Positions 1,554-14,503 of a stretch of 64,000 bases of DNA are shown one piece after another. Under the pieces are notes generated by a model, which was not told where the DNA came from, did not search any database, and saw nothing but the letters and a program-made list of their open reading frames with translations. Positions within the stretch are counted from its first letter, which is position 1, and each line of letters opens with the position of its first letter. The DNA lies in sequence record OM386658.1; one strand, written 5' to 3'. This DNA is from Escherichia phage vB_EcoM_ESCO32. The translations under genes were made by a program, and so were the position numbers.

Positions 1554-1571
1554 GATATGATTCCTATATTG

Positions 1572-1632
1572 GGCGGGAAACCATTTCCCGCCTTACGTGA
1601 TACATCTTAGTATAAGGGCGATCCGGTGTCAA
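1572..1632 (-). promoter_or_regulatory. early promoter plus leader stem-loop cassette
   Basis: minus strand TTGACA-17 bp-TAAGAT then GGCGGGAAAtggTTTCCCGCC (1572-1592) immediately upstream of the RBS of CDS 1323..1553. Confidence 0.6.
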
Positions 1633-1645
1633 TAGATAAAGTTAA

Positions 1646-1882: not shown

Positions 1883-1929
1883 TTTCTTTTCCTGTTTTCG
1901 TTTTGGGTATGTTCTACCCTCTAAAAACA

Positions 1930-1958
1930 ATATTAAACTGTTGTGATTTATCGGTCAA
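1930..1958 (-). promoter_or_regulatory. sigma70-type promoter
   Basis: minus strand TTGACC-17 bp-TAATAT upstream of CDS 1646..1882. Confidence 0.45.
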
Positions 1959-2052
1959 TAGATGAGATTGTAAAGATTTGATAGTTTATTCCTTTGATGT
2001 TTTGTTATTTAATAGATATTAGCTATCAATATATAGCGGGATCTTCCGGTGA

Positions 2053-2205
2053 TTATCTTCCCCTGTCCCCAGGTGCCGCCCGTTCCATAATAATAATCAA
2101 AAGCAGGATAAAAGGCAAGATAAAAGGCAAATTATTCCCTATGTGCTTTAAACGCTCTAAACAGCTTTCTAACAGCTTTTTCATCCTGGCAAGGTGATTA
2201 GTCAT
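2053..2205 (-). CDS. possible small hydrophobic protein (about 50 aa)
   Basis: ATG with AAGG RBS in the 460-bp gap; translation MTNHLARMKKLLESCLERLKHIGNNLPFILPFIL...; contains a 12-bp tandem duplication; speculative. Confidence 0.25.
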   Translation of the reverse strand: MTNHLARMKKLLESCLERLKHIGNNLPFILPFILLLIIIMERAAPGDRGR

Positions 2206-2304
2206 TGTTACCTTGTTTAAGCGGTTATAATCGGTTTTAGGCTGTTTTACGCCACCTTTTACGTTTATTCTTTACGTGTTACTTCCATCGTGAAAAAAGA
2301 ATAC

Positions 2305-2336
2305 AAAAAAGGGCGCTTAGTGCGCCCCTTTCTTTT
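2305..2336 (-). terminator. rho-independent terminator
   Basis: minus strand GGGGCGCactaaGCGCCC stem followed by TTTTTTGTATTC. Confidence 0.55.
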
Positions 2337-2344
2337 ACCGTGTA

Positions 2345-2734
2345 TTAATATTCGTTATAATACATCGCTAACTTTTCATCAAAAGCCGATTGACGATCTG
2401 CATACTCCCAAAACATTTCTTGATCCTGTTGTTCGTCATCATCCATCATGTTGAATTGCGCAACCTCCTGGTAAGTGATCGCCATATTATAACGATAGGT
2501 GATCTCTTCTGCGATGTTTTCCGGTAAAGATGATTCTACACTGTCTAACAGCATATTTAACATCATTTCAGCCGCTTTTTCATCATTATCAAAGCAGTAA
2601 GCAGACCATGCCGCATGATGTTTATTTTTCATCTTTGCAATCAAGCCGTTGACTAAAAAAGGCGCTACGTTGTTAACGATACCCTGTAAAGATTGGAATT
2701 TTTCAACGTTAGAAACAGAAACCAGGTTGCGCAT
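2345..2734 (-). CDS. hypothetical early protein (129 aa after start trimming)
   Basis: ORF track frame 2345..2770; track start lies inside the leader hairpin; in-frame ATG (MRNLVSV) with AAAGG RBS chosen. Confidence 0.5.
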   Translation of the reverse strand: MRNLVSVSNVEKFQSLQGIVNNVAPFLVNGLIAKMKNKHHAAWSAYCFDNDEKAAEMMLNMLLDSVESSLPENIAEEITYRYNMAITYQEVAQFNMMDDDEQQDQEMFWEYADRQSAFDEKLAMYYNEY

Positions 2735-2757
2735 AGTATTTACCTTTTTGATTACCT

Positions 2758-2816
2758 GGCGGGAAACCATTTCCCGCCTACGTGGTAAATAATACCATAT
2801 TGGGGATCGGTGTCAA
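2758..2816 (-). promoter_or_regulatory. early promoter plus leader stem-loop cassette
   Basis: minus strand TTGACA-16 bp-TGgTATTAT then GGCGGGAAAtggTTTCCCGCC (2758-2778). Confidence 0.6.
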
Positions 2817-2822
2817 TACTTT

Positions 2823-3209
2823 TTATTCAATATAAATCAAATTATCTTCACCAATGTAAGCATGCACCGATGGCATTAATTTAGCTGCATTTGTTAGGCG
2901 GTTGGCGGTGTTAGTAGTGTATATTTCAGGGCGATCCCAAAAGCCTACGCCGTGACCGTTACGGGTGAAATGTAAGTCATTCCCGATCTGGTTTGCTGTT
3001 GCGCCGTCGCTCATTGCCTCAGAGATAGCAGCATCATTGGCATCACAATAAGCCGCTACGTCATGAATGATCCGCTGATGGGCTTGATCTGAAAAATCAT
3101 AATCGTCTAAGTTATCAATAAAATAGCCTTCATGATCCCTGGCGGATTCAGCAAAAATAAAGGCTTCTTTATAACCGTTGATGATTTCAATAATGATTTC
3201 AGTTTTCAT
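2823..3209 (-). CDS. hypothetical early protein (128 aa)
   Basis: ORF track; ATG start overlapping the stop of the upstream gene (translational coupling). Confidence 0.55.
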   Translation of the reverse strand: MKTEIIIEIINGYKEAFIFAESARDHEGYFIDNLDDYDFSDQAHQRIIHDVAAYCDANDAAISEAMSDGATANQIGNDLHFTRNGHGVGFWDRPEIYTTNTANRLTNAAKLMPSVHAYIGEDNLIYIE

Positions 3210-3421
3210 GCTGTACGCTCGACAATAATAATGGTTTGCGGTATCTCGTTTTCTACTACTAACAAGGCTTTTTTCTGTGTGATAGATATTTTAACACGTT
3301 GTAAAGTAGCGGTAAAATCTTTCATTTCATTATGCGCGGATTTAGTGCAATGCCATATTTCAGGTTTACCAATTTGCAAGCCGCGTAAAAATTCTGTTTT
3401 ACCTGTCTTATTCGTGATCAT
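3206..3421 (-). CDS. hypothetical early protein (about 71 aa)
   Basis: ORF track frame 3206..3439 (TTG in track); in-frame ATG (MITNKTGK) with AAGGTG RBS preferred. Confidence 0.45.
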   Translation of the reverse strand: MITNKTGKTEFLRGLQIGKPEIWHCTKSAHNEMKDFTATLQRVKISITQKKALLVVENEIPQTIIIVERTA

Positions 3422-3431
3422 TTGATTCACC

Positions 3432-3536
3432 TTATCCAATACCGTGGGAAGATAGGATCATGTTAGCCATAGTTGCAACCAATCCAACCGATAACACCAG
3501 GCCAACTACTACAACCGTGAAAATTTTCTCTAACAT
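3432..3536 (-). CDS. possible small hydrophobic peptide (34 aa)
   Basis: ATG with GAGGG RBS directly downstream of a promoter/hairpin cassette; MLEKIFTVVVVGLVLSVGLVATMANMILSSHGIG; below the ORF-track size cut-off. Confidence 0.25.
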   Translation of the reverse strand: MLEKIFTVVVVGLVLSVGLVATMANMILSSHGIG

Positions 3537-3554
3537 GATTCTACCCTCATTAAT

Positions 3555-3616
3555 GGGCGTTGCCTTATTGCCCCGCCCTATGTCGTACACTTTACCAGAT
3601 AACTGAATATTGTCAA
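3555..3616 (-). promoter_or_regulatory. early promoter plus imperfect leader stem-loop
   Basis: minus strand TTGACA-16 bp-TAAAGT then GC-rich imperfect palindrome GGGCGGGGCAAtaaggCAACGCCC. Confidence 0.5.
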
Positions 3617-3617
3617 A

Positions 3618-3812
3618 CTATTTTTTACAAGGGATCAGTAAACTTCTTGCTACCGCTTCACGTAAACCTTTACTTTTTATTAAATCTATTGTTGCAGGGT
3701 GGCAAGTAAAAGCCTTTGACCATTTTTGATCACCTGGTTTACGGGCGAAAATGTAAACTTCTCCGTCGATTTCATCCCAACGAGTATTGCTTGTTAGTTT
3801 TTTAAGCGCCAT
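3618..3812 (-). CDS. hypothetical early protein (about 64 aa)
   Basis: ORF track frame 3618..3842; track start (GTG) falls in the leader hairpin; in-frame ATG (MALKKL) chosen. Confidence 0.45.
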   Translation of the reverse strand: MALKKLTSNTRWDEIDGEVYIFARKPGDQKWSKAFTCHPATIDLIKSKGLREAVARSLLIPCKK

Positions 3813-3833
3813 GCTGATTTCTCTTTTAGTTAT

Positions 3834-3892
3834 GAGCGGCACTATTGCCGCCCTACGAAATACATTCTACCCGATTTATAATTGTTGTCAAA
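3834..3892 (-). promoter_or_regulatory. early promoter plus leader stem-loop cassette (variant B)
   Basis: minus strand TTGACA-16 bp-TAGAAT then GGGCGGCAatagTGCCGCTC (3834-3853). Confidence 0.55.
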
Positions 3893-4162
3893 CTATTTTT
3901 TCAAGCTCGACCAGTCAAAACACGGGGCGATCTCGTTAAAACTTGTGCCCTGTAAAGCACATAATTTTTTAGCAATAGCCGCCGTGACCTGGCGCTGTAC
4001 GCGCGGATCTGCTACTGATTGGAGAAAGTAGGCGGCTTTATATGTGATCATGCTTTCGCCTGTTTCCTTGTTAACGTGGTGCACGGTTTTAGCCTTATCA
4101 TCTTTTACCAGGGTGTAACCGGATTCGATGGCCTTGATTGCAACGTCCAATGATATTTTCAT
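3893..4162 (-). CDS. hypothetical early protein (89 aa)
   Basis: ORF track; ATG preceded by AAGAGATAA-type sequence and hairpin. Confidence 0.55.
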   Translation of the reverse strand: MKISLDVAIKAIESGYTLVKDDKAKTVHHVNKETGESMITYKAAYFLQSVADPRVQRQVTAAIAKKLCALQGTSFNEIAPCFDWSSLKK

Positions 4163-4181
4163 GATTTATCTCTTTATTGAT

Positions 4182-4203
4182 GGCGGGGAATACTCCCCCC
4201 GCC
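4182..4203 (-). promoter_or_regulatory. intercistronic GC-rich stem-loop without promoter
   Basis: GGCGGGGaatactCCCCCCGCC sits 8 nt after the stop of the upstream small ORF and 20 nt before the next ATG; no -35/-10 pair and no U-tract. Confidence 0.5.
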
Positions 4204-4210
4204 TTATTAA

Positions 4211-4381
4211 TTACTCTTCATCGTCGCCGTTGTAGTATTCAATGCCGTTTTCATCGGTTACGGTAATATTAACGCCACCGATAGCAACACGATCACGGGC
4301 AAACGTCATGGCTTCATTTAAATCTTCAGACCAAAAAATATTGTGACCTTTGCGCGATACATAAAACATAGTCGGGATCAT
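4211..4381 (-). CDS. small hypothetical protein (56 aa)
   Basis: unannotated gap ORF MIPTMFYVSRKGHNIFWSEDLNEAMTFARDRVAIGGVNITVTDENGIEYYNGDDEE; fills the gap between two cassettes. Confidence 0.45.
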   Translation of the reverse strand: MIPTMFYVSRKGHNIFWSEDLNEAMTFARDRVAIGGVNITVTDENGIEYYNGDDEE

Positions 4382-4402
4382 GATTTGTTTCTCTTCTGTT
4401 GT

Positions 4403-4464
4403 GAGCGGGAAACCACTTCCCGCCCTATGTGATAAACTTTACTACGTTGTTTTTCTGCTGTCAA
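4403..4464 (-). promoter_or_regulatory. early promoter plus leader stem-loop cassette
   Basis: minus strand TTGACA-17 bp-TAAAGT then GGCGGGAAgtggTTTCCCGCTC. Confidence 0.6.
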
Positions 4465-4465
4465 A

Positions 4466-4750
4466 TTATTTTTTAATGTTTTGCCCTACAAAATTGATCA
4501 CTTCCTTAAGCTGTTTCTCAGTCATGATCGTGCCTGGTAATTCTTCTTTGATTTCTTCCGGTAAATAGATATTACCGCGCCAAGTTAATAAACAACAGTT
4601 TTGATCTTCGCAGATGGAATAAGAGAAGATCCACTCATTATCATTCTCAAGCTCCCAAAAGCACAAAAAATCTTCTTTCCCTAAGTTTTCAACGGTTAAG
4701 CATAATCCGCGACGTGCTGCATAGTTGGAAAGTGCTTTTGTGATCTTCAT
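4466..4750 (-). CDS. hypothetical early protein (94 aa)
   Basis: ORF track; ATG; cassette upstream. Confidence 0.55.
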   Translation of the reverse strand: MKITKALSNYAARRGLCLTVENLGKEDFLCFWELENDNEWIFSYSICEDQNCCLLTWRGNIYLPEEIKEELPGTIMTEKQLKEVINFVGQNIKK

Positions 4751-4769
4751 AGCTTATCTCTTCTTTTAA

Positions 4770-4833
4770 GGCGGGGAAACCATTTCCCCGCTCTATGAGA
4801 TACAATATACTACCCGTTCGGTGTGCTGTCAAT
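4770..4833 (-). promoter_or_regulatory. early promoter plus leader stem-loop cassette
   Basis: minus strand TTGACA-17 bp-TATATT then GCGGGGAAAtggTTTCCCCGC (4771-4791). Confidence 0.6.
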
Positions 4834-5156
4834 CAATAATCTTCAATATTTTCTACATTGACAAAAGCATGTTTATTTTCTAAGTTTTCGCCGTACCATT
4901 GCCCCATGTTGATTTCTGCGGTGCGCAACCAGGACATGCCGCGTTGTATCTTTTTACTTGCAATCTCGATCCGGCTTTTGCATAGTGCTTTCGCTTGCAA
5001 TGTAAAAACACTATTGCCCTGTAATGCTTCCAGGTCATCATGTGCAAGGCGATACTCTTTAAAGCCTGATTCTATCATTTCAATAGCATCAAGTAAACGC
5101 GCGCGATGATAGAAAAAATCAGAGTTATCCAAATAAACACCGATCACAGATTTCAT
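4833..5156 (-). CDS. hypothetical early protein (about 107 aa)
   Basis: ORF track frame 4833..5216; track start lies inside the promoter spacer; in-frame ATG (MKSVIGV) downstream of the -10 chosen. Confidence 0.5.
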   Translation of the reverse strand: MKSVIGVYLDNSDFFYHRARLLDAIEMIESGFKEYRLAHDDLEALQGNSVFTLQAKALCKSRIEIASKKIQRGMSWLRTAEINMGQWYGENLENKHAFVNVENIEDY

Positions 5157-5199
5157 AATTTTACCCTTTTGTTTGCGGCCTTTGCCGTTTTCAAGATAT

Positions 5200-5228
5200 A
5201 TTTTAAAGCATAACAAAAAATTGTCAAA
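5200..5228 (-). promoter_or_regulatory. sigma70-type promoter (no leader hairpin)
   Basis: minus strand TTGACA-16 bp-TAAAAT. Confidence 0.5.
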
Positions 5229-5256
5229 CCTTTAAAGCGTACAACTATAAAACCTA

Positions 5257-5376
5257 TTAAAACACAATATATAACAACATGGCTATAGTAGCAATATAAC
5301 ATAAAACCATGCTTGTTTTCCTTCCTTCCTCATATGCTGGATTTATTACGCTATACTGTACGGGAATAACTTTCAT
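5257..5376 (-). CDS. possible small protein (39 aa)
   Basis: gap ORF MKVIPVQYSVINPAYEEGRKTSMVLCYIATIAMLLYIVF with AAGGA RBS; speculative. Confidence 0.25.
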   Translation of the reverse strand: MKVIPVQYSVINPAYEEGRKTSMVLCYIATIAMLLYIVF

Positions 5377-5385
5377 GTTGTTTCC

Positions 5386-5481
5386 TTAATGTCTTAAAAC
5401 GTGGTTTACAATAGAAACAAGTATACAGAAGAAAAAAGATCCTGACAATAAGATCCCGAAAAATAAATGTAAATAGGGCAT
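5386..5481 (-). CDS. possible small membrane peptide (31 aa)
   Basis: gap ORF MPYLHLFFGILLSGSFFFCILVSIVNHVLRH with GGAG RBS; speculative. Confidence 0.3.
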   Translation of the reverse strand: MPYLHLFFGILLSGSFFFCILVSIVNHVLRH

Positions 5482-5485
5482 GGTT

Positions 5486-5788
5486 TTACTCCTTAAAAAA
5501 ATCATTGACAATTAAACTGATAACGCCCAGCACCAGATCACCAGGTAGCGCCGCGCTTTCGTTGTTGCTTATTTGCACTTCCTCACTAGTACCAGCATGA
5601 TAAATCGCATGGTAAGCAATAGTATAATAACCTTTCGTTATTTCTTTAAGATTAATGATTAGCACGTTATTTGTTTCATCTTGAAACAATTTAGCGGTGA
5701 TAGTATTGTTTTCTTTTACACTATCGACTTTTATTGATGGATCAGTTACACCAGAAAAAAGAAAAAACGTTTTAGCTATGCCGTTCAT
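5486..5788 (-). CDS. hypothetical early protein (100 aa)
   Basis: ORF track; ATG with AAAGGAG RBS; promoter upstream. Confidence 0.55.
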   Translation of the reverse strand: MNGIAKTFFLFSGVTDPSIKVDSVKENNTITAKLFQDETNNVLIINLKEITKGYYTIAYHAIYHAGTSEEVQISNNESAALPGDLVLGVISLIVNDFFKE

Positions 5789-5810
5789 GTAGTTCTCCTT
5801 TGTTGTGTGT

Positions 5811-5839
5811 ATCTTATAACGTGCTTTCTATGTTGTCAA
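5811..5839 (-). promoter_or_regulatory. sigma70-type promoter
   Basis: minus strand TTGACA-17 bp-TAAGAT directly upstream of CDS 5486..5788. Confidence 0.5.
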
Positions 5840-6237
5840 TCTTTTATCTCGGTGCATTTTGCTAGGGTATACGTTGCAAGTGCTGACACTAGTTTTTCAT
5901 TGCTACGATCTGCGGCTGTACTGTGTACTTTTTGAATACTTTTTAGCCACGGCGTAAAGTTTTGAGTAGTAAGCACACTAGTAATAATTTCACATGGCAC
6001 GTTTTCATTTAAACCGTTAGCTATAGATTTATCTATTTTTGCCGTTAGTTGTGTAACAGCACCATAAGCGATCATGTGTGAATCCTCCATGATTTCATCG
6101 GGGATCGCATTATTAATGATCATCACGTTTTCCATTGCATCAACGGCGCTTAATTCTGCTACTGTGGAGGATATTGCCGCGTGAGATGTTCCAACCATGC
6201 CAAAAGAGATTAAACCAGCGATCAATAATTTTTTCAT
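5836..6237 (-). CDS. secreted or periplasmic hypothetical protein with signal peptide
   Basis: ORF track frame 5836..6249; start placed at MKKLLIAGLISFGMVGTSHA with GAGG RBS; N-terminal hydrophobic signal-like segment. Confidence 0.55.
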   Translation of the reverse strand: MKKLLIAGLISFGMVGTSHAAISSTVAELSAVDAMENVMIINNAIPDEIMEDSHMIAYGAVTQLTAKIDKSIANGLNENVPCEIITSVLTTQNFTPWLKSIQKVHSTAADRSNEKLVSALATYTLAKCTEIKD

Positions 6238-6245
6238 TTCTTGCC

Positions 6246-6428
6246 TCATATATGTTTTATTGAGATTATATTGTCACTATATACAACGTTTTTCAACGTG
6301 TCAATAAAAATCTTATTGCCTTCAATCCCCAGGATCACGCCGCTAGTTATGAAGCCATATTGATCACGGTATCGGGCGCATAACCTTTGCCCCTGGGCTA
6401 GTGCCTTGCTTATTTCTTCTAATCTCAT
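6246..6428 (-). CDS. hypothetical early protein (60 aa)
   Basis: ORF track; ATG with AGGAG RBS; stop overlaps the downstream gene start. Confidence 0.45.
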   Translation of the reverse strand: MRLEEISKALAQGQRLCARYRDQYGFITSGVILGIEGNKIFIDTLKNVVYSDNIISIKHI

Positions 6429-6520
6429 TTTAAAGCTCCTGTAAAGCCGTCTAACGTTGATTTATAGGCTTGCCCTGGCGTTACCATTGCCTATGGGTAA
6501 CAAGCCTCTATATAAGCTAA

Positions 6521-6548
6521 AAGGGCGCTTATTGCGCCCTTTTTTGTT
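6521..6548. terminator. GC hairpin, possible bidirectional terminator
   Basis: AAGGGCGCttattGCGCCCTT followed by TTTTTGTT on plus strand and shorter T run on minus. Confidence 0.5.
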
Positions 6549-6684
6549 ATTCGTTCCAGTATCTTTTTGTGCTGCGATCTCTTTTTGTTTTGTTCCGCTT
6601 ATCGCCTTTCTTGGTGATCTCTTCGTTCCAATTTTTACGCGCCTTGCTGCGGTTGAATTTTTCGATCTGCTGTGATGCGTTCAT
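6547..6684 (-). CDS. small highly basic protein (45 aa)
   Basis: gap ORF MNASQQIEKFNRSKARKNWNEEITKKGDKRNKTKRDRSTKRYWNE with GAGGA RBS; lysine/arginine rich. Confidence 0.4.
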   Translation of the reverse strand: MNASQQIEKFNRSKARKNWNEEITKKGDKRNKTKRDRSTKRYWNE

Positions 6685-6699
6685 GTTTTTTCCTCTTAA

Positions 6700-7059
6700 T
6701 TACGCCACGTTATGCTGTTTTGCCAGGATTACGATCATGCTTGCAATATATAACCAATAATTTTCCCGCTCACGGGTAACGGTTGTTTCTTTGCTTGTTT
6801 CTTTTATGTACTTCCATTCAATTAACAAGTGATCGATCTCGTTATAATCAAAAGCAATATTGACTTCTGACGGTAAACCTTGTAACCATGAGGCTATTGC
6901 CTTGATCACGTTATAATTGTAACGTTTTTGATTATCGGGATACCAGTATTCAGAGTTAAAACGGCGCATCAGTTCGGTGATCTTTTCTTTTTCGGTTGTA
7001 GTACCATCAAAAGAAATAGCCGACACAATGTAAGTTTTAATTGCTTTTACTGATTTCAT
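6700..7059 (-). CDS. hypothetical early protein (119 aa)
   Basis: ORF track; ATG; cassette upstream. Confidence 0.55.
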   Translation of the reverse strand: MKSVKAIKTYIVSAISFDGTTTEKEKITELMRRFNSEYWYPDNQKRYNYNVIKAIASWLQGLPSEVNIAFDYNEIDHLLIEWKYIKETSKETTVTRERENYWLYIASMIVILAKQHNVA

Positions 7060-7079
7060 AATCTTATCTCTTTATTGAT

Positions 7080-7138
7080 GGCGGGAAACCATTTCCCGCC
7101 GTTGTTGTTACTTTACTTATAAATGATGCTACTGTCAA
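7080..7138 (-). promoter_or_regulatory. early promoter plus leader stem-loop cassette
   Basis: minus strand TTGACA-17 bp-TAAAGT then GGCGGGAAAtggTTTCCCGCC (7080-7100). Confidence 0.6.
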
Positions 7139-7145
7139 ACGGATA

Positions 7146-7316
7146 TTATTTGTTTTTTAACGTTAATGTTCCCAGCTTATCAGCGTGACGCAGACCAGGA
7201 AAGATCCATTTTCCTGATTCATCTTTTACCGGGGCTTTAAGCGTAGCGCCCAGATTGGCGGCATTAACTTTACGTGCAACGTTGCGAGCGGCTTCACGGG
7301 TGGCGAAAGTGATCAT
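7146..7316 (-). CDS. small hypothetical protein (56 aa)
   Basis: gap ORF MITFATREAARNVARKVNAANLGATLKAPVKDESGKWIFPGLRHADKLGTLTLKNK; hairpin upstream. Confidence 0.45.
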   Translation of the reverse strand: MITFATREAARNVARKVNAANLGATLKAPVKDESGKWIFPGLRHADKLGTLTLKNK

Positions 7317-7340
7317 GGTGTTTTCCTCTTCTCTTTGTTA

Positions 7341-7400
7341 GGCGGTGGGCTATTCCACCGCCTTGATGAATATAGTTTACTTTATTTTGTTAAGATTGCA
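7341..7400 (-). promoter_or_regulatory. promoter-like element plus leader stem-loop
   Basis: GGCGGTGGgctattCCACCGCC hairpin (7341-7362) preceded on minus strand by TTGCAA-16 bp-TAAACT. Confidence 0.5.
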
Positions 7401-7407
7401 AGCGGTT

Positions 7408-7623
7408 TTATGAAATAATTGTCAAAGTAAAATCATAATCTTTTGACAGTTTATATTGTACCTTGTTCCCGTAATAGTCACCTTTACGTAAAGATCCGCG
7501 AATACCTATTACATCCTTTACATCTTTAAGATTTTTCACGCCTGTAATGTCTTTATTGAAATGATCGTGATCAGAAAATAAAACCTGCTTTGCATTTTTT
7601 AACAATGTGCGGATATTAGCCAT
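7408..7623 (-). CDS. hypothetical early protein (71 aa)
   Basis: ORF track; ATG; cassette upstream. Confidence 0.5.
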   Translation of the reverse strand: MANIRTLLKNAKQVLFSDHDHFNKDITGVKNLKDVKDVIGIRGSLRKGDYYGNKVQYKLSKDYDFTLTIIS

Positions 7624-7643
7624 TTGATAATCTCTCTCACTAT

Positions 7644-7701
7644 GAGCGGCACTATTGCCGCCCTATGAATTACATTTTACTAATTTTAGTTATCTTGTCA
7701 A
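7644..7701 (-). promoter_or_regulatory. early promoter plus leader stem-loop cassette (variant B)
   Basis: minus strand TTGACA-16 bp-TAAAAT then GGGCGGCAatagTGCCGCTC (7644-7663). Confidence 0.6.
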
Positions 7702-7709
7702 TATTATTT

Positions 7710-7937
7710 TTAGTTTAATGCATCCAGGCACAACAAGCGATCAACATTTAGATCGGTTAGGCTAATCGTTGGCACCTGGTAGGATTCGATATATTCGACG
7801 CTCGACCACTGACCAAAATTAGCGACCGCCCAGCTATTCAAGGAAGAGTGAAGATCATCCCCTTTCTTCTCTGTGATGACTGCTACTACCTGGGAGCTTC
7901 CAACCGTACCGGATACGCGAACAATAACGATAGCCAT
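7710..7937 (-). CDS. hypothetical early protein (75 aa)
   Basis: ORF track; ATG with AAAGG RBS. Confidence 0.5.
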   Translation of the reverse strand: MAIVIVRVSGTVGSSQVVAVITEKKGDDLHSSLNSWAVANFGQWSSVEYIESYQVPTISLTDLNVDRLLCLDALN

Positions 7938-7960
7938 AATTATAACCTTTCTTTGATTTG

Positions 7961-8020
7961 GCGGGAAACCATTTCCCGCCCTATGTGATAAACTATACCA
8001 GAATATAAAACGTTGTCAAC
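7961..8020 (-). promoter_or_regulatory. early promoter plus leader stem-loop cassette
   Basis: minus strand TTGACA-16 bp-TATAGT then GGCGGGAAAtggTTTCCCGCC (7961-7981). Confidence 0.6.
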
Positions 8021-8028
8021 TGTTTTTA

Positions 8029-8268
8029 TTACATTCCAACCATAGCGGCACGGATTGCAGTTTTACTATACTTGAATCCGTCCGGTGTTTTATCTTGTCC
8101 AGTTTGCTCCAGGAATAACATCATATCACGCGCGGCATCATTCTTATTTGTATTAGCTGCGATAAATTCACGCGCAAGATTATAAAAACCTTCATCGTTG
8201 TTGATCCAAAGGCTTACATTCCAATGAGTTTTGTTTTTGTGACCGTTGTACATTTTAGATTTAGCCAT
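8029..8268 (-). CDS. hypothetical early protein (about 79 aa)
   Basis: ORF track frame 8029..8325; track start overlaps the -10 TATAAT; in-frame ATG (MAKSKMYNGHK) downstream of hairpin chosen. Confidence 0.5.
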   Translation of the reverse strand: MAKSKMYNGHKNKTHWNVSLWINNDEGFYNLAREFIAANTNKNDAARDMMLFLEQTGQDKTPDGFKYSKTAIRAAMVGM

Positions 8269-8291
8269 GATGTTAATCTCTTTTTCAGTGA

Positions 8292-8350
8292 GGCGGGAAC
8301 TATTCCCGCTCTCTATGCAAAACATTATACGCCTTTAAACCTAGTTTGCA
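8292..8350 (-). promoter_or_regulatory. early promoter plus leader stem-loop cassette
   Basis: minus strand TTGCAA-16 bp-TATAAT then GGCGGGAAtagTTCCCGC. Confidence 0.6.
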
Positions 8351-8370
8351 AGTGCTTTTTAAAAATATGC

Positions 8371-8601
8371 TTAGATTGCAATCGCGTCTAGGCTATAATA
8401 ATAATAAGTGCCGTATTGGTGTACTTTATTACCTTTTATTTCAGTGCTGAATGAATCCGAACGATTAGCATATGATGTTAATTTATAATACTTTGCTTTA
8501 CTAATACGTTGCCATACACCGCAGATCCGCTGTAAGTAAGTAGTTTTATTAGTAGTAGTATCTTTTACGGTTTTAACTTCGGTCATATACATATTAGCCA
8601 T
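8371..8601 (-). CDS. hypothetical early protein (about 76 aa)
   Basis: ORF track frame 8371..8634; track start is inside the leader hairpin; in-frame ATG (MANMYMTEV) chosen. Confidence 0.45.
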   Translation of the reverse strand: MANMYMTEVKTVKDTTTNKTTYLQRICGVWQRISKAKYYKLTSYANRSDSFSTEIKGNKVHQYGTYYYYSLDAIAI

Positions 8602-8620
8602 TTTATTATACCTAGTTATA

Positions 8621-8683
8621 GGCGGGGGAACCATTCCCCCGTCCTGATATGAAACATTTTACGCTTTTTATTCGTGCTGTCAA
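8621..8683 (-). promoter_or_regulatory. early promoter plus leader stem-loop cassette
   Basis: minus strand TTGACA-16 bp-TAAAAT then GGACGGGGGAAtggTTCCCCCGCC. Confidence 0.6.
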
Positions 8684-8689
8684 TGCTTT

Positions 8690-9055
8690 TTATAAATCTT
8701 TTTTACGTTTAACATCGCTTGCATGACTGTATACAGCGATCCCATTGTCACGGCAAAAACGGGAAAGGTAAGCATAATTTGAAAAGTCTTTGCCTTCCAG
8801 GTTGATGACCTTGCTAAACTCTTCCAGGGCAACGGTATCAAAATGATCCCCGTAACCATAGTGAAACGGAACGTTAACGACTTCAATCAGTTTACCGCCG
8901 ATCTCAACGTCAACCATCAAAGAGAAATAAGTATTACCATAAGACTTTTGAAACCAGCGACGGGCGCTAATATGTACCGCTTCAATGCTGGATAGTTCAA
9001 TTTTAGCAGTGTTAGCCAGGGTAGCATAAGCAGAAACATTGATATTTTTAGCCAT
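8690..9055 (-). CDS. hypothetical early protein (121 aa)
   Basis: ORF track; ATG; promoter upstream. Confidence 0.55.
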   Translation of the reverse strand: MAKNINVSAYATLANTAKIELSSIEAVHISARRWFQKSYGNTYFSLMVDVEIGGKLIEVVNVPFHYGYGDHFDTVALEEFSKVINLEGKDFSNYAYLSRFCRDNGIAVYSHASDVKRKKDL

Positions 9056-9102
9056 AGTCTTTAATCTCTTTTGATTAGTTAGGAGTATTCCCGATAAAAG
9101 TT

Positions 9103-9131
9103 ATTATGCTTGTACTATCGTTCGTTGTCAA
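9103..9131 (-). promoter_or_regulatory. sigma70-type promoter (no hairpin)
   Basis: minus strand TTGACA-17 bp-CATAAT. Confidence 0.5.
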
Positions 9132-9150
9132 TAGCACAAGACTAAAACTT

Positions 9151-9330
9151 TTAACGATAATCATCATATGCTTTATTGACCTGGCGAATATAGCATTCAA
9201 AAGCTAGATCAATAGATTTATATTCACGGATATAATTACCATAGGAAACCACATACATTTCTATAGCTTCCTCATATGCCAGGAGGATAGAATCTAAACC
9301 TACGATCTCAGTCTTCGCAATAATAGCCAT
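9151..9330 (-). CDS. small hypothetical protein (59 aa)
   Basis: gap ORF MAIIAKTEIVGLDSILLAYEEAIEMYVVSYGNYIREYKSIDLAFECYIRQVNKAYDDYR; tandem promoters upstream. Confidence 0.45.
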   Translation of the reverse strand: MAIIAKTEIVGLDSILLAYEEAIEMYVVSYGNYIREYKSIDLAFECYIRQVNKAYDDYR

Positions 9331-9367
9331 GCTTTTATTCCTTAGTAATGTTTCAATCTATATAAGC

Positions 9368-9472
9368 ATTATAGCTTACTGATTTTAGGTGTCAACTGAT
9401 TTTTTATTTCACCTTTGAGAAGTTGCCCCGCTCTATGTGGTACATATTACGGGGCTTGTTTGCATATGTCAA
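9368..9472 (-). promoter_or_regulatory. two tandem sigma70-type promoters with long-loop GC hairpin between them
   Basis: minus strand TTGACA-17-TAATAT (9444-9472) and TTGACA-16-TATAAT (9368-9395); GCCCCG...CGGGGC inverted repeat around 9424-9455. Confidence 0.5.
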
Positions 9473-9475
9473 CCC

Positions 9476-10030
9476 TTACACAATGCAATTTTCATAATTT
9501 TTTAAGGCTTGTATTTTTTCCTCTTCTGTCGGCGTGTATGGCTGGATCTCTTCCTCTTCCATGTTAGGCATGATTTCTTCCTCTTCCTCCTGGTCGTCCT
9601 GGTCTTCCTCTTGCGCTATGGTAACAAGTTTATTGATCTTCTCCTGGGCTTTAATCAATTTTGCATCTAGCACCATTTTAGCGGTGTTGTATACAGTCCA
9701 TGCCATGCGCTTTTCTTCGTATGCCTTATCTAGTGCGGCTAATTTAGCGGGATACTCTTCTAACACCTTAAAAGCCGGATCAATGCTATATAAGGGATTA
9801 TTTTTAGCGTCATCGCTTGGATCTGCGGCGCTTGCAATGTCAGCGTTACCGTTTGCCAGCCAACCAGGGCGAACGGATCGCGTCTTTGTGTGACCGTTGC
9901 TCTTTGCCGCTCGATTCCCTATCTGCTCCCCGCTGTACCCTACCATGTGATCGATCATGTCATCTGGTATTATGCGCGGATCATTAGCGTCATGCTTTAC
10001 CCATGACTGGATCACATATTCACGCCCCAT
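9476..10030 (-). CDS. hypothetical protein with strongly acidic C-terminal tail (184 aa)
   Basis: ORF track; C-terminus QEEDQDDQEEEEEIMPNMEEEEIQPYTPTEEE; start overlaps the upstream gene end. Confidence 0.55.
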   Translation of the reverse strand: MGREYVIQSWVKHDANDPRIIPDDMIDHMVGYSGEQIGNRAAKSNGHTKTRSVRPGWLANGNADIASAADPSDDAKNNPLYSIDPAFKVLEEYPAKLAALDKAYEEKRMAWTVYNTAKMVLDAKLIKAQEKINKLVTIAQEEDQDDQEEEEEIMPNMEEEEIQPYTPTEEEKIQALKNYENCIV

Positions 10031-10292
10031 GTTCGTTCGCCTCTTCTGTTAGTAGTTTACACACCTTAAACATGCTTGCCGCGTCTTTTGACGGTAGCCA
10101 GCCTATGCGATACACTCCAGGATCTGGATTCGTTATATCCGTTAGTTGGGCATTACGATGATTAAAAATAGTGTAACCGCCGCCAGCACGGGGATAAACA
10201 TTATCTTTAAACCTGATAGCGTATCTCGCCAGGTTGAACGTCGTAGCATGTTCAAAAGCGATCACATTATCAAAAACTTTTAGAAAAAACAA
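10020..10292 (-). CDS. hypothetical early protein (90 aa)
   Basis: ORF track; TTG start with GGAGGA RBS 5 nt upstream. Confidence 0.5.
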   Translation of the reverse strand: MFFLKVFDNVIAFEHATTFNLARYAIRFKDNVYPRAGGGYTIFNHRNAQLTDITNPDPGVYRIGWLPSKDAASMFKVCKLLTEEANEHGA

Positions 10293-10294
10293 GA

Positions 10295-10441
10295 TTATCC
10301 TCCCCAGCGTTTAAAGCCCGTTGCACGGTTATTTTTTAACTCTCGTTTTAGTCTCTTGCAACGGTTTACAAGTGCAAACCGTGCCGGAGTGGTAACAGTA
10401 GCGCCGTTTTTGGTGTGAATACTCATTACATATTGTTTCAT
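10295..10441 (-). CDS. possible small basic protein (48 aa)
   Basis: gap ORF MKQYVMSIHTKNGATVTTPARFALVNRCKRLKRELKNNRATGFKRWGG downstream of cassette. Confidence 0.35.
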   Translation of the reverse strand: MKQYVMSIHTKNGATVTTPARFALVNRCKRLKRELKNNRATGFKRWGG

Positions 10442-10460
10442 AAAGTTTTATCCTATGTAA

Positions 10461-10514
10461 GCGGGAACTATTCCCGCTTTAAGATAGCTTATCAGGTTTT
10501 AGTGCAATGTCAAC
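10461..10514 (-). promoter_or_regulatory. early promoter plus leader stem-loop cassette
   Basis: minus strand TTGACA-16 bp-TAAGCT then GCGGGAAtagTTCCCGC. Confidence 0.55.
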
Positions 10515-10519
10515 CGTTT

Positions 10520-10882
10520 TTATTCGTAAATTTTACCGCTTTCCACCCATACCATAACACGGCGCATGTTATCCCATGCATCTTGTCGCAGATTTAAGGC
10601 ATGCAATTCTTCCGTGGTGCTCATACCTGGAACGGGCTTATTATACGTTACAAAGAGATCGCCAGCATATTCATAAGCCAGGGTAAGATCACATTGAATC
10701 ATCTTTTTAATCATAGCATCAAGCATCATATTAGCGGCATGTTGATCACGTTTTAACGGTAATGTCGCGATCTGTGTGCGATAGCTTTCGATCCGTGCAT
10801 CCACTGCATCACGCGAAAGATTTTTCACGTCATCGCGGAAAGATACCAGGTTTAACATGATAGTATTGATTTGCTTGCTCAT
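10520..10882 (-). CDS. hypothetical early protein (120 aa)
   Basis: ORF track; ATG with AAAGGG RBS. Confidence 0.55.
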   Translation of the reverse strand: MSKQINTIMLNLVSFRDDVKNLSRDAVDARIESYRTQIATLPLKRDQHAANMMLDAMIKKMIQCDLTLAYEYAGDLFVTYNKPVPGMSTTEELHALNLRQDAWDNMRRVMVWVESGKIYE

Positions 10883-10904
10883 TGTGTTACCCTTTCTTTG
10901 ATTT

Positions 10905-10964
10905 GGCGGGAAACCATTTCCCGCCCTATGTGGTATATATTACTAAATTATTTTTCAGTGTCAA
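10905..10964 (-). promoter_or_regulatory. early promoter plus leader stem-loop cassette
   Basis: minus strand TTGACA-16 bp-TAATAT then GGCGGGAAAtggTTTCCCGCC (10905-10925). Confidence 0.6.
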
Positions 10965-10967
10965 GCC

Positions 10968-11240
10968 TTAAAGCAAAAATGCTACATCTTGCGCTTTTAG
11001 TGTAGTGTCGATCATTTTCGGGCTTTTATAATCAACAAAGCGCGCGGTTTTTTCAATAGCGAAACCTAAATAATCTTGCTTATTGAAATTACATTCTTTT
11101 TTAAATGTTTCCCGTGCCACGGTGATCGCTGCATCCAGGGATAAACGCCCATCAATATTAATATTAGCGAAAGATCCGCCACCGCGCATAGGTTTACCAG
11201 TGATACCCATTACGATCATTGATGCGCTATATGATGCCAT
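10968..11240 (-). CDS. hypothetical early protein (90 aa)
   Basis: ORF track; ATG; cassette upstream. Confidence 0.55.
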   Translation of the reverse strand: MASYSASMIVMGITGKPMRGGGSFANINIDGRLSLDAAITVARETFKKECNFNKQDYLGFAIEKTARFVDYKSPKMIDTTLKAQDVAFLL

Positions 11241-11262
11241 GATTATTTCTCTCTTCTGTTAT

Positions 11263-11320
11263 GAGCGGCACTATTGCCGCCCTATGTGATACATCTTATC
11301 AGATTAAAAAACGTTATCAA
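11263..11320 (-). promoter_or_regulatory. early promoter plus leader stem-loop cassette (variant B)
   Basis: minus strand TTGATA-16 bp-TAAGAT then GGGCGGCAatagTGCCGCTC (11263-11282). Confidence 0.55.
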
Positions 11321-11328
11321 GAATATTT

Positions 11329-11424
11329 TTAAAAAATAATAACCGCTACTACAACCCAAAATGGAACGGCGAGAATGATAGCGTTAATCGTTCCAACCGC
11401 CAAGCTGTTTTCTTTCTTGATCAT
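11329..11424 (-). CDS. possible small membrane peptide (31 aa)
   Basis: gap ORF MIKKENSLAVGTINAIILAVPFWVVVAVIIF; first gene position of the minus array; speculative. Confidence 0.2.
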   Translation of the reverse strand: MIKKENSLAVGTINAIILAVPFWVVVAVIIF

Positions 11425-11692
11425 CGTTATCAACCTTTTATAAGTAATGTTATTGTGACGGTGGATTGTGGAGATCCTCACCTTTGCCCGTCCTGCATTG
11501 CGCCCTCCTTTTGTTTATTGTCGTTGTGCCTCGCCCCCCTCGACAAGATGAATAATACGCTACCAGGTGAGGAACGTCAACCCCTTTTTTAATCTTTTTT
11601 TCATTTCTTTTTTGCTTGCTATCTATAAAGGAAAGGGGCTATTATCTTTCTACCGCGCCAACCAGGGCGCACATCAAAGAAAGGGCGATACC

Positions 11693-11959
11693 ATGACAAA
11701 TACTACTTTACACCTCATGCACTCATTAGGCTGGCAAGGCGGCACGGTGCACCAGGTAGCAAGCGCAACGGGCTTAAAGGTTGAAACCGTTCTCAACCTG
11801 GGCGATCATAAGGTGGAAGAAATAGATCATTTTGATACGTTCGCAAATGGTTATCTATGGGCTTGCAGTGGCGGCGGGGAAAGCAAGATCCCACCAGGGG
11901 CGCGGGGTGATATGTATTTTTGGTTAGGTGTCCTATCCTGGCAAGAAAACAAAAAATAA
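11693..11959 (+). CDS. hypothetical protein (about 88 aa)
   Basis: ORF track frame 11567..11959; start placed at in-frame ATG (MTNTTLHLMH) with AAAGGG RBS. Confidence 0.4.
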   Translation: MTNTTLHLMHSLGWQGGTVHQVASATGLKVETVLNLGDHKVEEIDHFDTFANGYLWACSGGGESKIPPGARGDMYFWLGVLSWQENKK

Positions 11960-11962
11960 TAT

Positions 11963-11990
11963 TGACAAGCCCAGGGATCGGGCTTATACT
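11963..11990 (+). promoter_or_regulatory. sigma70-type promoter with palindromic spacer
   Basis: TTGACA-16 bp-TATACT on plus strand; spacer contains AGCCC...GGGCT inverted repeat; no downstream ORF identified. Confidence 0.45.
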
Positions 11991-12221
11991 GTCTTACATA
12001 CAGAAGAGGAAGCGCCACCCCCACGGCGTAAAGGCGGGGCTAACATACCAGGGCACTACTGGTTGGAAGGTTGATCGCCGGTAGCTCGTCTAAAATAAAT
12101 TTGTAAAGAAATGTAAAGATAAAAATAATTGCTTGCTTTTGTTGTTGGTTATGCTATTCTTATTGTATGGCGAGGGGACACGGGAGCGCGAGACAAACAC
12201 CGCCCCTGCGCGTTATTCTCT

Positions 12222-12332
12222 AAATGAGAAAATTCTCATTTGCTAATGATTCTCATTCTCTTACTGAGAATGATTATCACTTACATAGTTAAATGATAAT
12301 GATTCTCATTTACAAATGAGAATCATTATCAT
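12222..12332. promoter_or_regulatory. cluster of AT-rich palindromes with Fur-box similarity
   Basis: AAATGAGAAaaTTCTCATTT (12222-12241) and perfect 19-bp inverted repeat ATGATAATGATTCTCATTTacAAATGAGAATCATTATCAT (12293-12332); halves fit TGATAATnATTATCA at 13-14 of 15. Confidence 0.4.
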
Positions 12333-12353
12333 ACGCACACCTATAAAAACACG

Positions 12354-12552
12354 AAATTGAACTTTTCATTTTTGATTTTTCTACGGAAAAAGGCAAAAAA
12401 ACTTTAAATAAACTGGGGAATTTTTAAAAAATTGAAGTTTTCATTTTCTAAACCTGGATAGAAATACGTACAAAAACTTTAAATAATTTTGACCAAACTT
12501 GAACTTTTCATTTTCTAAATTTGTACCCAAAAATCTGTAAAAACTTTAAATA
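12354..12552. repeat. three tandem imperfect 58-bp direct repeats (iteron-like)
   Basis: units at 12354-12411, 12429-12486, 12495-12552 share TTGAAcTTTTCATTTTcTAAA ... AAAAACTTTAAATAAtTTTG; ORF-free AT-rich region. Confidence 0.6.
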
Positions 12553-12772
12553 ATTTTGTCCTTTTTATAAAAATGATTTTACTGTTCTGTTATAAATAGT
12601 AGCTAAGAGATAATGTGTCTTTTAAAAACCAAATAGCATAGTCCAACAAACAAATTAAATAATTTATTAACAGAGTACAAAATAATACTTACTCTGGATA
12701 TATTATTCAGAGGGTGAATTTCCGTACATGAAACCCACACCCCTTTTTATAAAAATAAAAATTTTCAAAATA

Positions 12773-13324
12773 TCAGGAAATATCAGATTGTGCTTTTAGA
12801 TAAACAGCAAGGTCTGTATGCCATTTTCCTAAAAGATTTTGTCCTTTCCAACAGTCCTTATTTTCCACATCACGATCCCACATCCCCATTTTGATACCAT
12901 AAATAGAATCATAAGGGCTTGCCTCTACGAACTCCTTATCGGCGTAAGCAATAAGTTTATTTTTGAGATCTTCATTTTGTGTGTATTTAAGATACAAACC
13001 ACGCTTGACAATCTTCTCTCGTAAAGAAGTCCAGGTATCTTCATCATAATCTTTAACTAATCTGCCTAGTCGCTTATAATATGCTTGTTCTTTTTCTCCT
13101 GTATATCTTAGACCTCCGGTTAAAATAGAAGATGCAATGTTGTAATCATAAAATAAACATGCTTTTCTCCACATCATATATTGTTCCACACAAGTAAATT
13201 CAACAGAACTTGTAATAGAATTATTATACTTGGGAGCTAAAGGTTCAATAAAAGATGATAGATACCAGTTGCTAAATTCATCTTTTGCCGAGAAGAAGAA
13301 CACATACTTATCAGTAATCCGCAT
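12773..13324 (-). CDS. NADAR-domain (YbiA-like) protein, putative ADP-ribose or N-glycoside hydrolase
   Basis: ORF track 183 aa; FFFSAKDEFSNWYLSSF ... EQYMMWRKA ... ASPYDSIYGIKMG ... GQNLLGKWHTDLAVYL follows the NADAR pattern recalled from E. coli YbiA. Confidence 0.7.
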   Translation of the reverse strand: MRITDKYVFFFSAKDEFSNWYLSSFIEPLAPKYNNSITSSVEFTCVEQYMMWRKACLFYDYNIASSILTGGLRYTGEKEQAYYKRLGRLVKDYDEDTWTSLREKIVKRGLYLKYTQNEDLKNKLIAYADKEFVEASPYDSIYGIKMGMWDRDVENKDCWKGQNLLGKWHTDLAVYLKAQSDIS

Positions 13325-14503
13325 TTACACCTCCTTACTGTATACTAACTTGCCACCATGTTGTGTAATAATTTTTTGAAGATTTTCCAAATCAGAAGCA
13401 CTTACTGTTTCTGTATGACCATCTTTCAACTCTCTTGCTGTTAAAATACCAGTTTTTAGTTTTTTCTTTATAGCTCTTTCAGCAGCCTTACACTGTTTCA
13501 CTGTACTAAAATCATATAAACAAATACGCTCCATAAAAAACATATTATGCCTATTTTGATTGTTTAATCGCCTGTCACTATCTTTAGCTATGCCAAACTT
13601 AAGAGCAACTATAATATCATTATCTTTAACAATATTAATATATAATTGCTGTTGACTATGACCTGCACATTGTGGACAACCTTGACCGTGGCTTAATAAG
13701 TTATTAACACGCCCTATCTGCTCCCCATGCACAAGACAAAGATATTTAAACTTACCTGTAGAAGATGGTTTGGTAATCCAATCTACCCAGACATACCCTT
13801 TCCCTTCTACTTCCTTTTTTACCCTATAGGTGATCTGGTCTTCTGTATACTGATAGTTCCCACAACGACACGGAATGTACCCTTGTTTAAGGCGATTTCC
13901 TTTAGAGTAAAATTTACCATCACAAACACCTGCTTGAACATATTCATCATGAGAGCAAACAGGACATTCAACCATCCAGGTAATATGCCTACATCCTTTA
14001 CCCCGTGTTCCTGTGTTAGTGAAGATAGTGCCTTCCTTAAATTTCCCTGTAGAAAAGAAACCTGCAATATGTTGATCGTCGGACATTGTTTGTTTCTCCC
14101 TCCTACATTGTGGACAACCTCGACCGACTTTAAATTGATCAATTGCTGTACTTTGCCATCTATTCCCACAATGGCACAACAAATCAAGTTTTGTGTAACA
14201 CCCTTTCCATTCTCCAACGTACCCTAATACTTGATACTCCTTCTTCTGTGCTATCTCTTCCAAGATCGGTAATTCTGCTTCCCATGTTAACGGCTTATTC
14301 CTTGCACATGTCGGACAACCACGTCCATTCTTAAAATCATTAATGCTCGTGGTGTTCCATTCTCCATGATCAGAGCAAGATAGCTTAAGTTTAGTCTTGT
14401 TCCCTTTCCATTCTCCCGTCCATCCTAAGATTTGGATTTGCTTACTCTCTGCTATTGGTTGACACTCTTCTTTATATTGTTCCCATGATTTTGGTGCTAC
14501 CAT
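13325..14503 (-). CDS. zinc-ribbon repeat protein with C-terminal GIY-YIG/T5orf172-like domain
   Basis: ORF track 392 aa; at least three copies of G(W/Y)xGEWKG...KLxLxC..(H)G..W.....I..FK.GRGCP.CA; C-terminal LYINIVKDNDIIVALKFGIAKDSDRRL. Confidence 0.65.
   Translation of the reverse strand: MVAPKSWEQYKEECQPIAESKQIQILGWTGEWKGNKTKLKLSCSDHGEWNTTSINDFKNGRGCPTCARNKPLTWEAELPILEEIAQKKEYQVLGYVGEWKGCYTKLDLLCHCGNRWQSTAIDQFKVGRGCPQCRREKQTMSDDQHIAGFFSTGKFKEGTIFTNTGTRGKGCRHITWMVECPVCSHDEYVQAGVCDGKFYSKGNRLKQGYIPCRCGNYQYTEDQITYRVKKEVEGKGYVWVDWITKPSSTGKFKYLCLVHGEQIGRVNNLLSHGQGCPQCAGHSQQQLYINIVKDNDIIVALKFGIAKDSDRRLNNQNRHNMFFMERICLYDFSTVKQCKAAERAIKKKLKTGILTARELKDGHTETVSASDLENLQKIITQHGGKLVYSKEV

Follow-up and report, generated by a model that had tools for sequence, protein, structure and literature searches.

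Two arrays of Fur-type sites lie in the long untranslated regions on either side of a block of small minus-strand genes in the DNA analyzed here, a 64,000-nucleotide stretch (hereafter, the window) of a phi92-like lytic coliphage. The sites match Fur operators in sequence, are arranged with the architecture of such operators, keep their position across phage lineages, and turn over in number and sequence while doing so. From this pattern, we infer that Fur actually binds and which transcript or process would be controlled. Judged by the DNA sequence, binding of the predicted arrays by host Fur is quite likely; for the whole statement, i.e., that the palindromes are part of operator arrays for host Fur that would act in cis as an iron-dependent switch, we estimate a probability of about 0.5. 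The arrays suggest that the phage may read or manipulate the iron status of its host, with the counterpoint that it is not obvious why a lytic phage would need to respond to iron.

Fur-type sites in two untranslated regions

The window belongs to Justusliebigvirus (Stephanstirmvirinae). A similarity search returned 139 phage records matching the region around the finding, and these surroundings are 96-98% identical to phi92-like phages (outra, phi92, inny, alia, and others). Four records labelled "Campylobacter phage" with the host C. jejuni (MG065639, MG065645, MG065656, and MG065689) are ~97% identical to phi92-like coliphage over the queried stretches, and their host labels look doubtful. 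No tRNA genes were found in the 64-kb window. Except for the small plus-strand gene gp224 (11693-11959), the genes nearby are encoded on the minus strand, and a block of small hypothetical genes (864-11240) is bounded on both sides by untranslated regions of 1.5-1.7 kb each, one at 11241-12772 (with array B) and the other running from ~860 leftwards past the window start (with array A). In phage Paula, which has the same layout on this side, the left region measures 1.7 kb and precedes another minus-strand block of small genes. Each region has its own conserved elements, and the left one holds more Fur-type sites beyond the window edge. The sequence-only reading had described the sites as flanking the island; they do bound it, and the description was incomplete in that it missed the full extent of the two untranslated regions and the extra sites outside the window. 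The palindromes had also been said to lie in an ORF-free region, which agrees with the finding that no ORF of at least 60 amino acids overlaps 11960-12772. The arrays are ~1 kb away from the nearest downstream minus-strand gene start (for region A as judged from phage Paula), and no iron-related function is known for any gene near them.

To avoid circularity, a Fur position weight matrix (PWM) was built from host data only, using 17 footprinted or gel-shifted E. coli K-12 sites with coordinates from Chen et al. 2007 (PMC2189734, Tables 3 and 4) and sequences from NC_000913.3 (fepA-fes, fepB, entC, fepD-entS, fur, tonB, cirA, sodA, fecA, fecI, fhuF [two sites], yoeA, gpmA, ryhB, nohA, and sufA). 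The Fur box was clear in each of the fetched E. coli regions after correction of a coordinate offset between record versions, and refining the matrix iteratively yielded a 19-bp palindromic model that carries 17.5 bits and has precisely GATAATGATAATCATTATC as its consensus. With this matrix, the real E. coli sites reached a leave-one-out median of 18.5 bits. Eight sites in the 64 kb scored at least 17 bits (17.6-22.9 bits), all inside 12242-12330 or 543-619, and the best site outside these eight scored 15.8 bits. When the AT-rich background of the window was substituted in the PWM, the sites still scored 13.9-20.3 bits. In dinucleotide shuffles of the whole window, sites of at least 17 bits numbered 0.39 on average and never more than 4, and in shuffles confined to the local AT-rich stretches (22-33% GC) they numbered 0.003-0.017; the observed best score was reached in at most 1 of 2000 of the latter shuffles. 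It had been proposed that the Fur assignment should be given up if PWM scores were no better than those of shuffled AT-rich controls; with eight sites of at least 17 bits against 0.003-0.39 expected, the scores are clearly better than that. Simple counting of matches to the 19-bp consensus GATAATGATAATCATTATC gave a similar picture, with 16 of 19 matches found four times in the 64 kb, three of them within the two clusters, and at least 14 of 19 matches at seven overlapping positions in 12242-12336 and three in 543-619. Furthermore, in an unbiased analysis of words enriched in the two regions relative to the remaining genome, the top 7-mers included the Fur half-site words AATGATT, AATGAGA, TGATAAT, and ATGAGAA. 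A further candidate at 24372 (14.7 bits, beside a consensus DnaA box) is located inside a 937-amino-acid ORF and was taken as a chance match.

Array B is found in a unique, AT-rich region (28% GC), directly after a module consisting of a promoter and a ~215-nt element and directly before three ~70-nt repeats. It contains the sites GCTAATGATTCTCATTCTC (12242-12260, 21.4 bits; partner at 12236, 6.4 bits) and GAGAATGATTATCACTTAC (12266-12284, 18.7 bits; partner at 12260, 7.3 bits), followed by two pairs with a 6-bp offset on the left arm (12289-12313; 17.8 bits at 12289 and 22.8 bits at 12295) and the right arm (12312-12336; 20.2 bits at 12312 and 13.9 bits at 12318) of the 40-bp palindrome. Array A consists of AAGAATGATTATCATTATT (543-561, 22.9 bits; partner at 537, 9.7 bits) and a pair with a 6-bp offset at 595-619 (18.0 bits at 595 and 17.6 bits at 601). 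The similar sites that had been noticed near position 550 were recovered, with GAATGATTATCATTATT at 545-561 and a second site at 595-619. As a list, the earlier one was correct for the Fur-type sites near 550 and in the 40-bp palindrome, and lacked those at 12242 and 12266 as well as two sites left of the window start.

The strong sites are paired at exactly 6 bp (12236/12242, 12260/12266, 12289/12295, 12312/12318, 537/543, and 595/601), a spacing that is present in all footprinted E. coli Fur sites and has been read as adjacent dimers on different helix faces (Chen et al. 2007, PMC2189734). Summed within 150 bp, the scores amounted to 128 bits for array B and 73 bits for array A. The same PWM gave 14 validated E. 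coli operators sums of 20-86 bits, although these operators are training data. Scores equal to or above those of real operators in a PWM made from validated sites, the 6-bp architecture, the confinement to non-coding regions, and a position retained in two subfamilies together bear out the earlier view that these sites are Fur-box-like and not merely AT-rich palindromes.

The 40-bp palindrome (12293-12332) is perfect, as the sequence-only reading had it, with 19-nt arms (12293-12311 and 12314-12332) that are 100% complementary and separated by a 2-nt spacer. The 20-bp palindrome AAATGAGAAAATTCTCATTT (AAATGAGAA-AA-TTCTCATTT) that had been listed beside it is also present, at 12222-12241, but scores 2.1 bits at best and does not stand as a Fur-type site. 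It is a degenerate orthologue of a 21-bp Fur-type palindrome scoring 17-23 bits in other lineages, and is not Fur-type here because it is one central base short compared to these orthologues. In the five other Justusliebigvirus copies examined, the 40-bp palindrome is imperfect. The right arm of close relatives either has a C to G change at the unconstrained center base of the site or has been replaced, and in both cases a site of 16.8-22.8 bits remains. A palindrome that loses its perfection but not its Fur score is consistent with selection for protein binding rather than for a hairpin, and from these alignments selection appears to act on the Fur-type sites rather than on hairpin perfection.

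These comparisons bear on the idea that the stretch is a structural DNA or RNA element (a cruciform or hairpin in a replication origin, at a packaging site, or at a transcript end) whose likeness to Fur sites is incidental, which we consider very unlikely. The perfect 40-bp palindrome would suit such an element, and a unique region of 28% GC placed between a probably transcribed element and three iteron-like repeats recalls an origin; the origin is undefined in this phage group, and the rV5 paper draws a "non-coding" box. Against it stand, in addition to the imperfect palindromes with preserved Fur scores in the five other copies, isolated sites of the same motif that are not part of a palindromic array, found at distances of ~11 kb and more. 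With AU-rich stems, a loop of 1-2 nt, and no U-tract, the hairpins are not terminator-like. Neither untranslated region has DnaA boxes, and the GC skew does not turn at the arrays; in a 148-kb relative, the cumulative skew turns at ~37, 75, 104, and 140 kb, only where the direction of transcription changes. No replication initiator was identified near the 28% GC region and the three repeats. A role in replication origin or packaging would also be compatible with binding of Fur.

Regions A and B have nothing detectable in common except the Fur-like motifs. The arrays are therefore separate instances of one binding site, and the duplication of one stretch as the source of both was ruled out. In a close relative, two further sites (25.3 and 20.8 bits) are located just left of the window start, within the same untranslated region. 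The complete 148-kb genome of the close relative OZ035770 contains 12 sites of at least 17 bits, 10 of which fall in the two untranslated regions that make up ~2% of the genome (six in array B, two in array A, and two further in the left region), while the two isolated sites are about what is expected by chance. It was also observed that an isolated 21.7-bit Fur-type site at position 117174 of OZ035770 overlaps the start codon of a glutaredoxin/NrdH-like ORF (MNFIIYGKPNCPFC...); in the host, nrdHIEF is Fur-regulated. On the minus strand of the window, a possible unannotated 47-amino-acid ORF with an AAGGAG ribosome-binding site was seen at ~595-738, and the Fur sites at 595-619 supply its final codons and stop; the differences between this ORF and phage Paula mix synonymous and non-synonymous changes. 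Extra palindromes that are unrelated to the Fur motif (GCAACAAT...ATTGTTGC and GCTTGCAA-TTG-TTGCAAGC) lie at 24-84.

A promoter, element, and palindrome module in two phage subfamilies

A sensitive search with 12150-12420 reached distant phages, and we aligned the window with phAPEC8, a Klebsiella phage, a Cronobacter Seunavirus, and an Erwinia Henunavirus. The order of the module is a sigma-70 promoter, a GC-rich element of ~215 nt, ~10 nt of spacing, the Fur-type palindrome AAATGAGAATGATTCTCATT, and three direct repeats, the last being present in every lineage inspected. Exact-anchor scans of IMG/VR and metagenomes added only nine true copies of the module, including that of PVP-SE1. All 15 complete copies (from Justusliebigvirus, Phapecoctavirus, Klebsiella phages, PVP-SE1 and Cronobacter Seunavirus, and Erwinia Henunavirus, thus covering two subfamilies) have at least two sites of at least 16.6 bits, 33-135 nt past the anchor. 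With a cut-off of 14 bits, a single palindrome (2 sites) is counted in the Erwinia, Cronobacter, and PVP-SE1 types, against 3-6 sites in the phages of E. coli and Klebsiella. The lineages differ in both the number (2 to 6) and the sequence of their sites, in a downstream stretch that is otherwise unalignable.

The promoter of the module (TTGACA-17-TATACT, 11962-11990, plus strand, 11 of 12 matches) points towards array B, ~245 nt downstream. It is conserved in the five aligned lineages, with an invariant -35 TTGAC, a -10 of the form TAnAnT, and a spacer of 17-18 nt. In the window, the spacer doubles as a hairpin (11965-11987), a second hairpin follows at 12013-12028, and the two look like terminators for minus-strand transcripts. 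The GC-rich non-coding element (11997-12215, plus strand) has the invariant blocks GATCGCCGGTAG, TTTGTAAAGA, and CGCGAGACAAACACC, ends ~10 nt short of the first palindrome, and is, together with the promoter, common to Stephanstirmvirinae and Vequintavirinae. It is probably transcribed, and could be a novel phage ncRNA (from either strand) or a DNA element. An Rfam scan of 11000-13500 (E ≤1) gave only meaningless weak matches, none of them for the element, and its folding energy was no better than that of shuffles (MFE z-score +0.7). RNAalifold, run with six and then eight lineages, found compensatory changes in only 2 of 43 predicted pairs; a possible exchange of CCCC/GGGG to CCAA/TTGG in the Erwinia phage was left uncounted because it needs a register shift. 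Coding by the element was rejected, as the alignment indels are not multiples of three and a short ATG frame is not conserved.

The three direct repeats of ~70 nt (12354-12574) share a core, CTTTAAATA, that is found nowhere else in the window, and are annotated merely as a repeat_region in phage inny. They have an iteron-like look (TTGAACTTTTCATTTTCTAAA ... AAAAACTTTAAATAAT), and the phages of Cronobacter and Erwinia have triple repeats of another sequence behind their Fur palindrome.

When the two untranslated regions were scanned for the sigma-70 consensus, matches were no more common than in shuffles, and those overlapping the arrays were weak (9 of 12 only). In the Seunavirus module, a good promoter with a TG extension (TTGACA-18-GAAAAT, 10 of 12 matches) starts 13 nt past the palindrome. 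On the minus strand of the same module, as judged by eye, the palindrome forms the spacer of TTGAAT-18-CAGAAT, which points into the conserved element; if this is a promoter, the arrangement would have the classical geometry of Fur-repressed promoters.

Host Fur, other DNA-binding proteins, and titration

The commonest half-site of the first palindrome of the module across lineages is GAGAAT/ATTCTC and not GATAAT. The PWM tolerates this half-site, and a different protein might prefer it. It is accordingly conceivable that the sites are operators for a DNA-binding protein of the phage, or for another host protein, and that the half-site TGAGAAT-n-ATTCTCA is merely Fur-like. Most of the ~250 phage genes are uncharacterized, and the small conserved gp224 lies directly upstream of the module in Stephanstirmvirinae, both of which would accommodate such a protein. 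The product of gp224 (11693-11959, plus strand) has 88 amino acids and belongs to phrog_19316, a PHROG of unknown function. Its predicted structure is a confident all-helical model with five helices (pLDDT 94), for which we found no significant structural neighbor, no Pfam match, and no recognizable DNA-binding fold. The gene is directly upstream of the module in Stephanstirmvirinae only; it was found neither in the fetched flanks of Vequintavirinae modules nor in the 18.9 kb of T5-like genome examined. It is also the sole plus-strand gene in its stretch.

The similarity search with 12150-12420 also brought up T5-like phages, which are unrelated to phi92-like phages. In the T5-like phage pork27 (MF431731, 9166-9668), eight sites of 14-21 bits in the Fur PWM are spread over ~500 bp, beside DnaA-box-like repeats, in an untranslated region at the right end of the left terminal repeat. 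This stretch is conserved in 403 Demerecviridae records and corresponds to "Repeat Region 3", the injection-stop (iss) region of T5, which has been described as having many palindromes and paired DnaA boxes, with Fur and iron not mentioned (Davison, bioRxiv 10.1101/866236). Unrelated phages that infect the same hosts share a motif, which suggests recognition by a host protein, and the motif varies as expected from the host Fur matrix. No Fur homologue was found in the phi92-like phage genome. Given the T5-like array, the lack of a phage Fur homologue, and a gp224 without recognizable DNA-binding fold, we prefer Fur to a phage protein, and the sequence comparisons lean towards host Fur as the best explanation of the motif. 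An operator for a phage protein and a purely structural role are possible, with less support than host Fur, and recognition by a protein other than Fur is in our view improbable.

The untranslated regions of the window resemble the T5 iss region in being long, conserved within the family, rich in palindromes and repeats, and placed at the edge of what is presumably the earliest-expressed gene block. They differ from it by having no DnaA boxes (TTWTNCACA) in 1-860 or 11241-12772; the window has 12 matches to this box, which equals the chance expectation, all outside the untranslated regions. Also in contrast to T5, two-step injection is not known for phi92-like phages. One paper reports direct terminal repeats for Stephanstirmvirinae and gives no coordinates.

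If host Fur is the binding protein, the arrays could still serve mainly as a sink, with replication of the phage DNA providing ever more sites to titrate Fur. Iron uptake by the host and RyhB-type iron sparing would then be derepressed, to the benefit of, e.g., iron-dependent nucleotide synthesis of the phage. FURTA exploits the derepression of the Fur regulon by Fur boxes in multicopy, and an E. coli cell has only some thousands of Fur molecules. There are ~12 strong sites per phage genome, the summed score of array B is higher than that of any host operator tested, and the array is larger in the phages of E. coli and Klebsiella than in those of Erwinia and Cronobacter, all of which would suit a sink; moreover, given Fur binding, some titration is expected once genome copies reach hundreds. 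However, a sink does not need confinement to two untranslated regions, and it would take effect towards the end of a short lytic cycle, with transcription of the host maybe already impaired. The modules of the Erwinia, Cronobacter, and PVP-SE1 types, in which a single palindrome keeps a constant distance to the conserved element, suggest a positional role in cis. Since these basal lineages have a single palindrome in a fixed position, we favor a local cis role over a pure sink. As a by-product of binding, titration would be expected when the copy number is high, and it is less likely than the cis role to be the primary function; as an explanation for the arrays, it is unlikely.

Known Fur operators and a putative iron-dependent switch

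The arrays resemble the extended Fur operators of E. coli (iucA, fhuF, fecI, and yoeA) in the 19-bp motif, the level of the scores, and the 6-bp overlap. In E. coli, "Fur binding site clusters" of 30-140 bp have been described, which fits polymerization of Fur along DNA (Chen et al. 2007, PMC2189734). Unlike these operators, the arrays reside in a lytic phage genome and not at a host iron-uptake promoter, with no overlapping promoter or iron target gene identified, and the summed score of array B exceeds those of all 14 host operators tested.

Fur sites in phage-derived DNA have precedents. Sites upstream of nohA and nohB (packaging genes of cryptic lambdoid prophages) and of yoeA (CP4-44) have been gel-shifted with Fur (Chen et al. 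2007, PMC2189734). As in the phage studied here, these are strong Fur boxes (21-27 bits) in phage-derived DNA, at genes unrelated to iron. The difference is that they are single short clusters (2-4 sites) in domesticated prophages, whereas here arrays occur in a virulent phage, at a position fixed across two subfamilies. Phage-borne cargo with a Fur box in front of it is known for stx1. Likewise, Fur boxes precede the sitABCD cargo on lambdoid coliphages (PMC6969025). In both systems, as proposed here, phage DNA is wired into the Fur regulon of the host; there, temperate phages have iron or virulence cargo under Fur, while here the phage is lytic and no such cargo is nearby. In a full-text literature search, Fur was not connected with untranslated regions of Vequintavirinae, Stephanstirmvirinae, or T5-like phages, and no report was found of Fur-box arrays in conserved non-coding control regions of strictly lytic phages. 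The Fur operators themselves would thus be ordinary, and the novelty would be their unexpected, conserved, and convergent viral context.

As we picture it, each strong site would be a full Fur box of 19-21 bp composed of two 7-1-7 half-operators at a 6-bp offset, an arrangement for which Fur dimers are expected to bind side by side. Iron-loaded dimers could thus bind cooperatively and coat ~100 bp in array B (12236-12336) and ~80 bp in array A (537-619), within the control regions that bound the small, putatively early minus-strand gene block. With iron available, bound Fur would keep RNA polymerase from initiating in, or reading across, the boundary of the conserved element with the repeats, and an equivalent block would operate at the corresponding points of the left region. 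In an iron-starved host, the transcription block would be lifted, making this step dependent on the iron status of the host.

A broader proposal is that large virulent phages of enterobacteria from unrelated families (phi92/rV5-like and T5-like) have independently placed super-strong Fur arrays in untranslated cis-acting DNA at the boundaries of their earliest blocks, with host Fur as a structural or regulatory partner. The bound protein might, for example, be a roadblock that pauses DNA entry or transcription, in which case the T5 injection-stop would partly be a Fur array; alternatively, it might gate the onset of phage replication by iron or control a phage non-coding RNA. We regard this generalization as speculative and doubtful.

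Should Fur bind the arrays, phages used in therapy and biocontrol (phi92, rV5, PVP-SE1, phAPEC8, and T5 relatives) would sense the iron status of their hosts or perturb it, and this status is very different in laboratory media and in the iron-limited body sites that these phages target. It would also give a first function to the large unexplained "non-coding" boxes in these phage genomes, and a new candidate factor for the injection-stop region of T5.

Two further features were observed in and beside the block of small genes. A 23-nt hairpin motif, TAGGGCGGCAATAGTGCCGCTCA, has three exact minus-strand copies (3833-3855, 7643-7665, and 11262-11284), located a short way in front of small early genes, with sigma-70-like promoters on their upstream side; it is annotated as a "PHIRE promoter" in phAPEC8 and is probably a 5'-UTR stem-loop rather than a promoter. 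Finally, a possible unannotated hydrophobic peptide of 31 amino acids (MIKKENSLAVGTINAIILAVPFWVVVAVIIF) is encoded on the minus strand at 11331-11426, downstream of a strong promoter (TTGACG-17-TATTAT) at 11580-11552.
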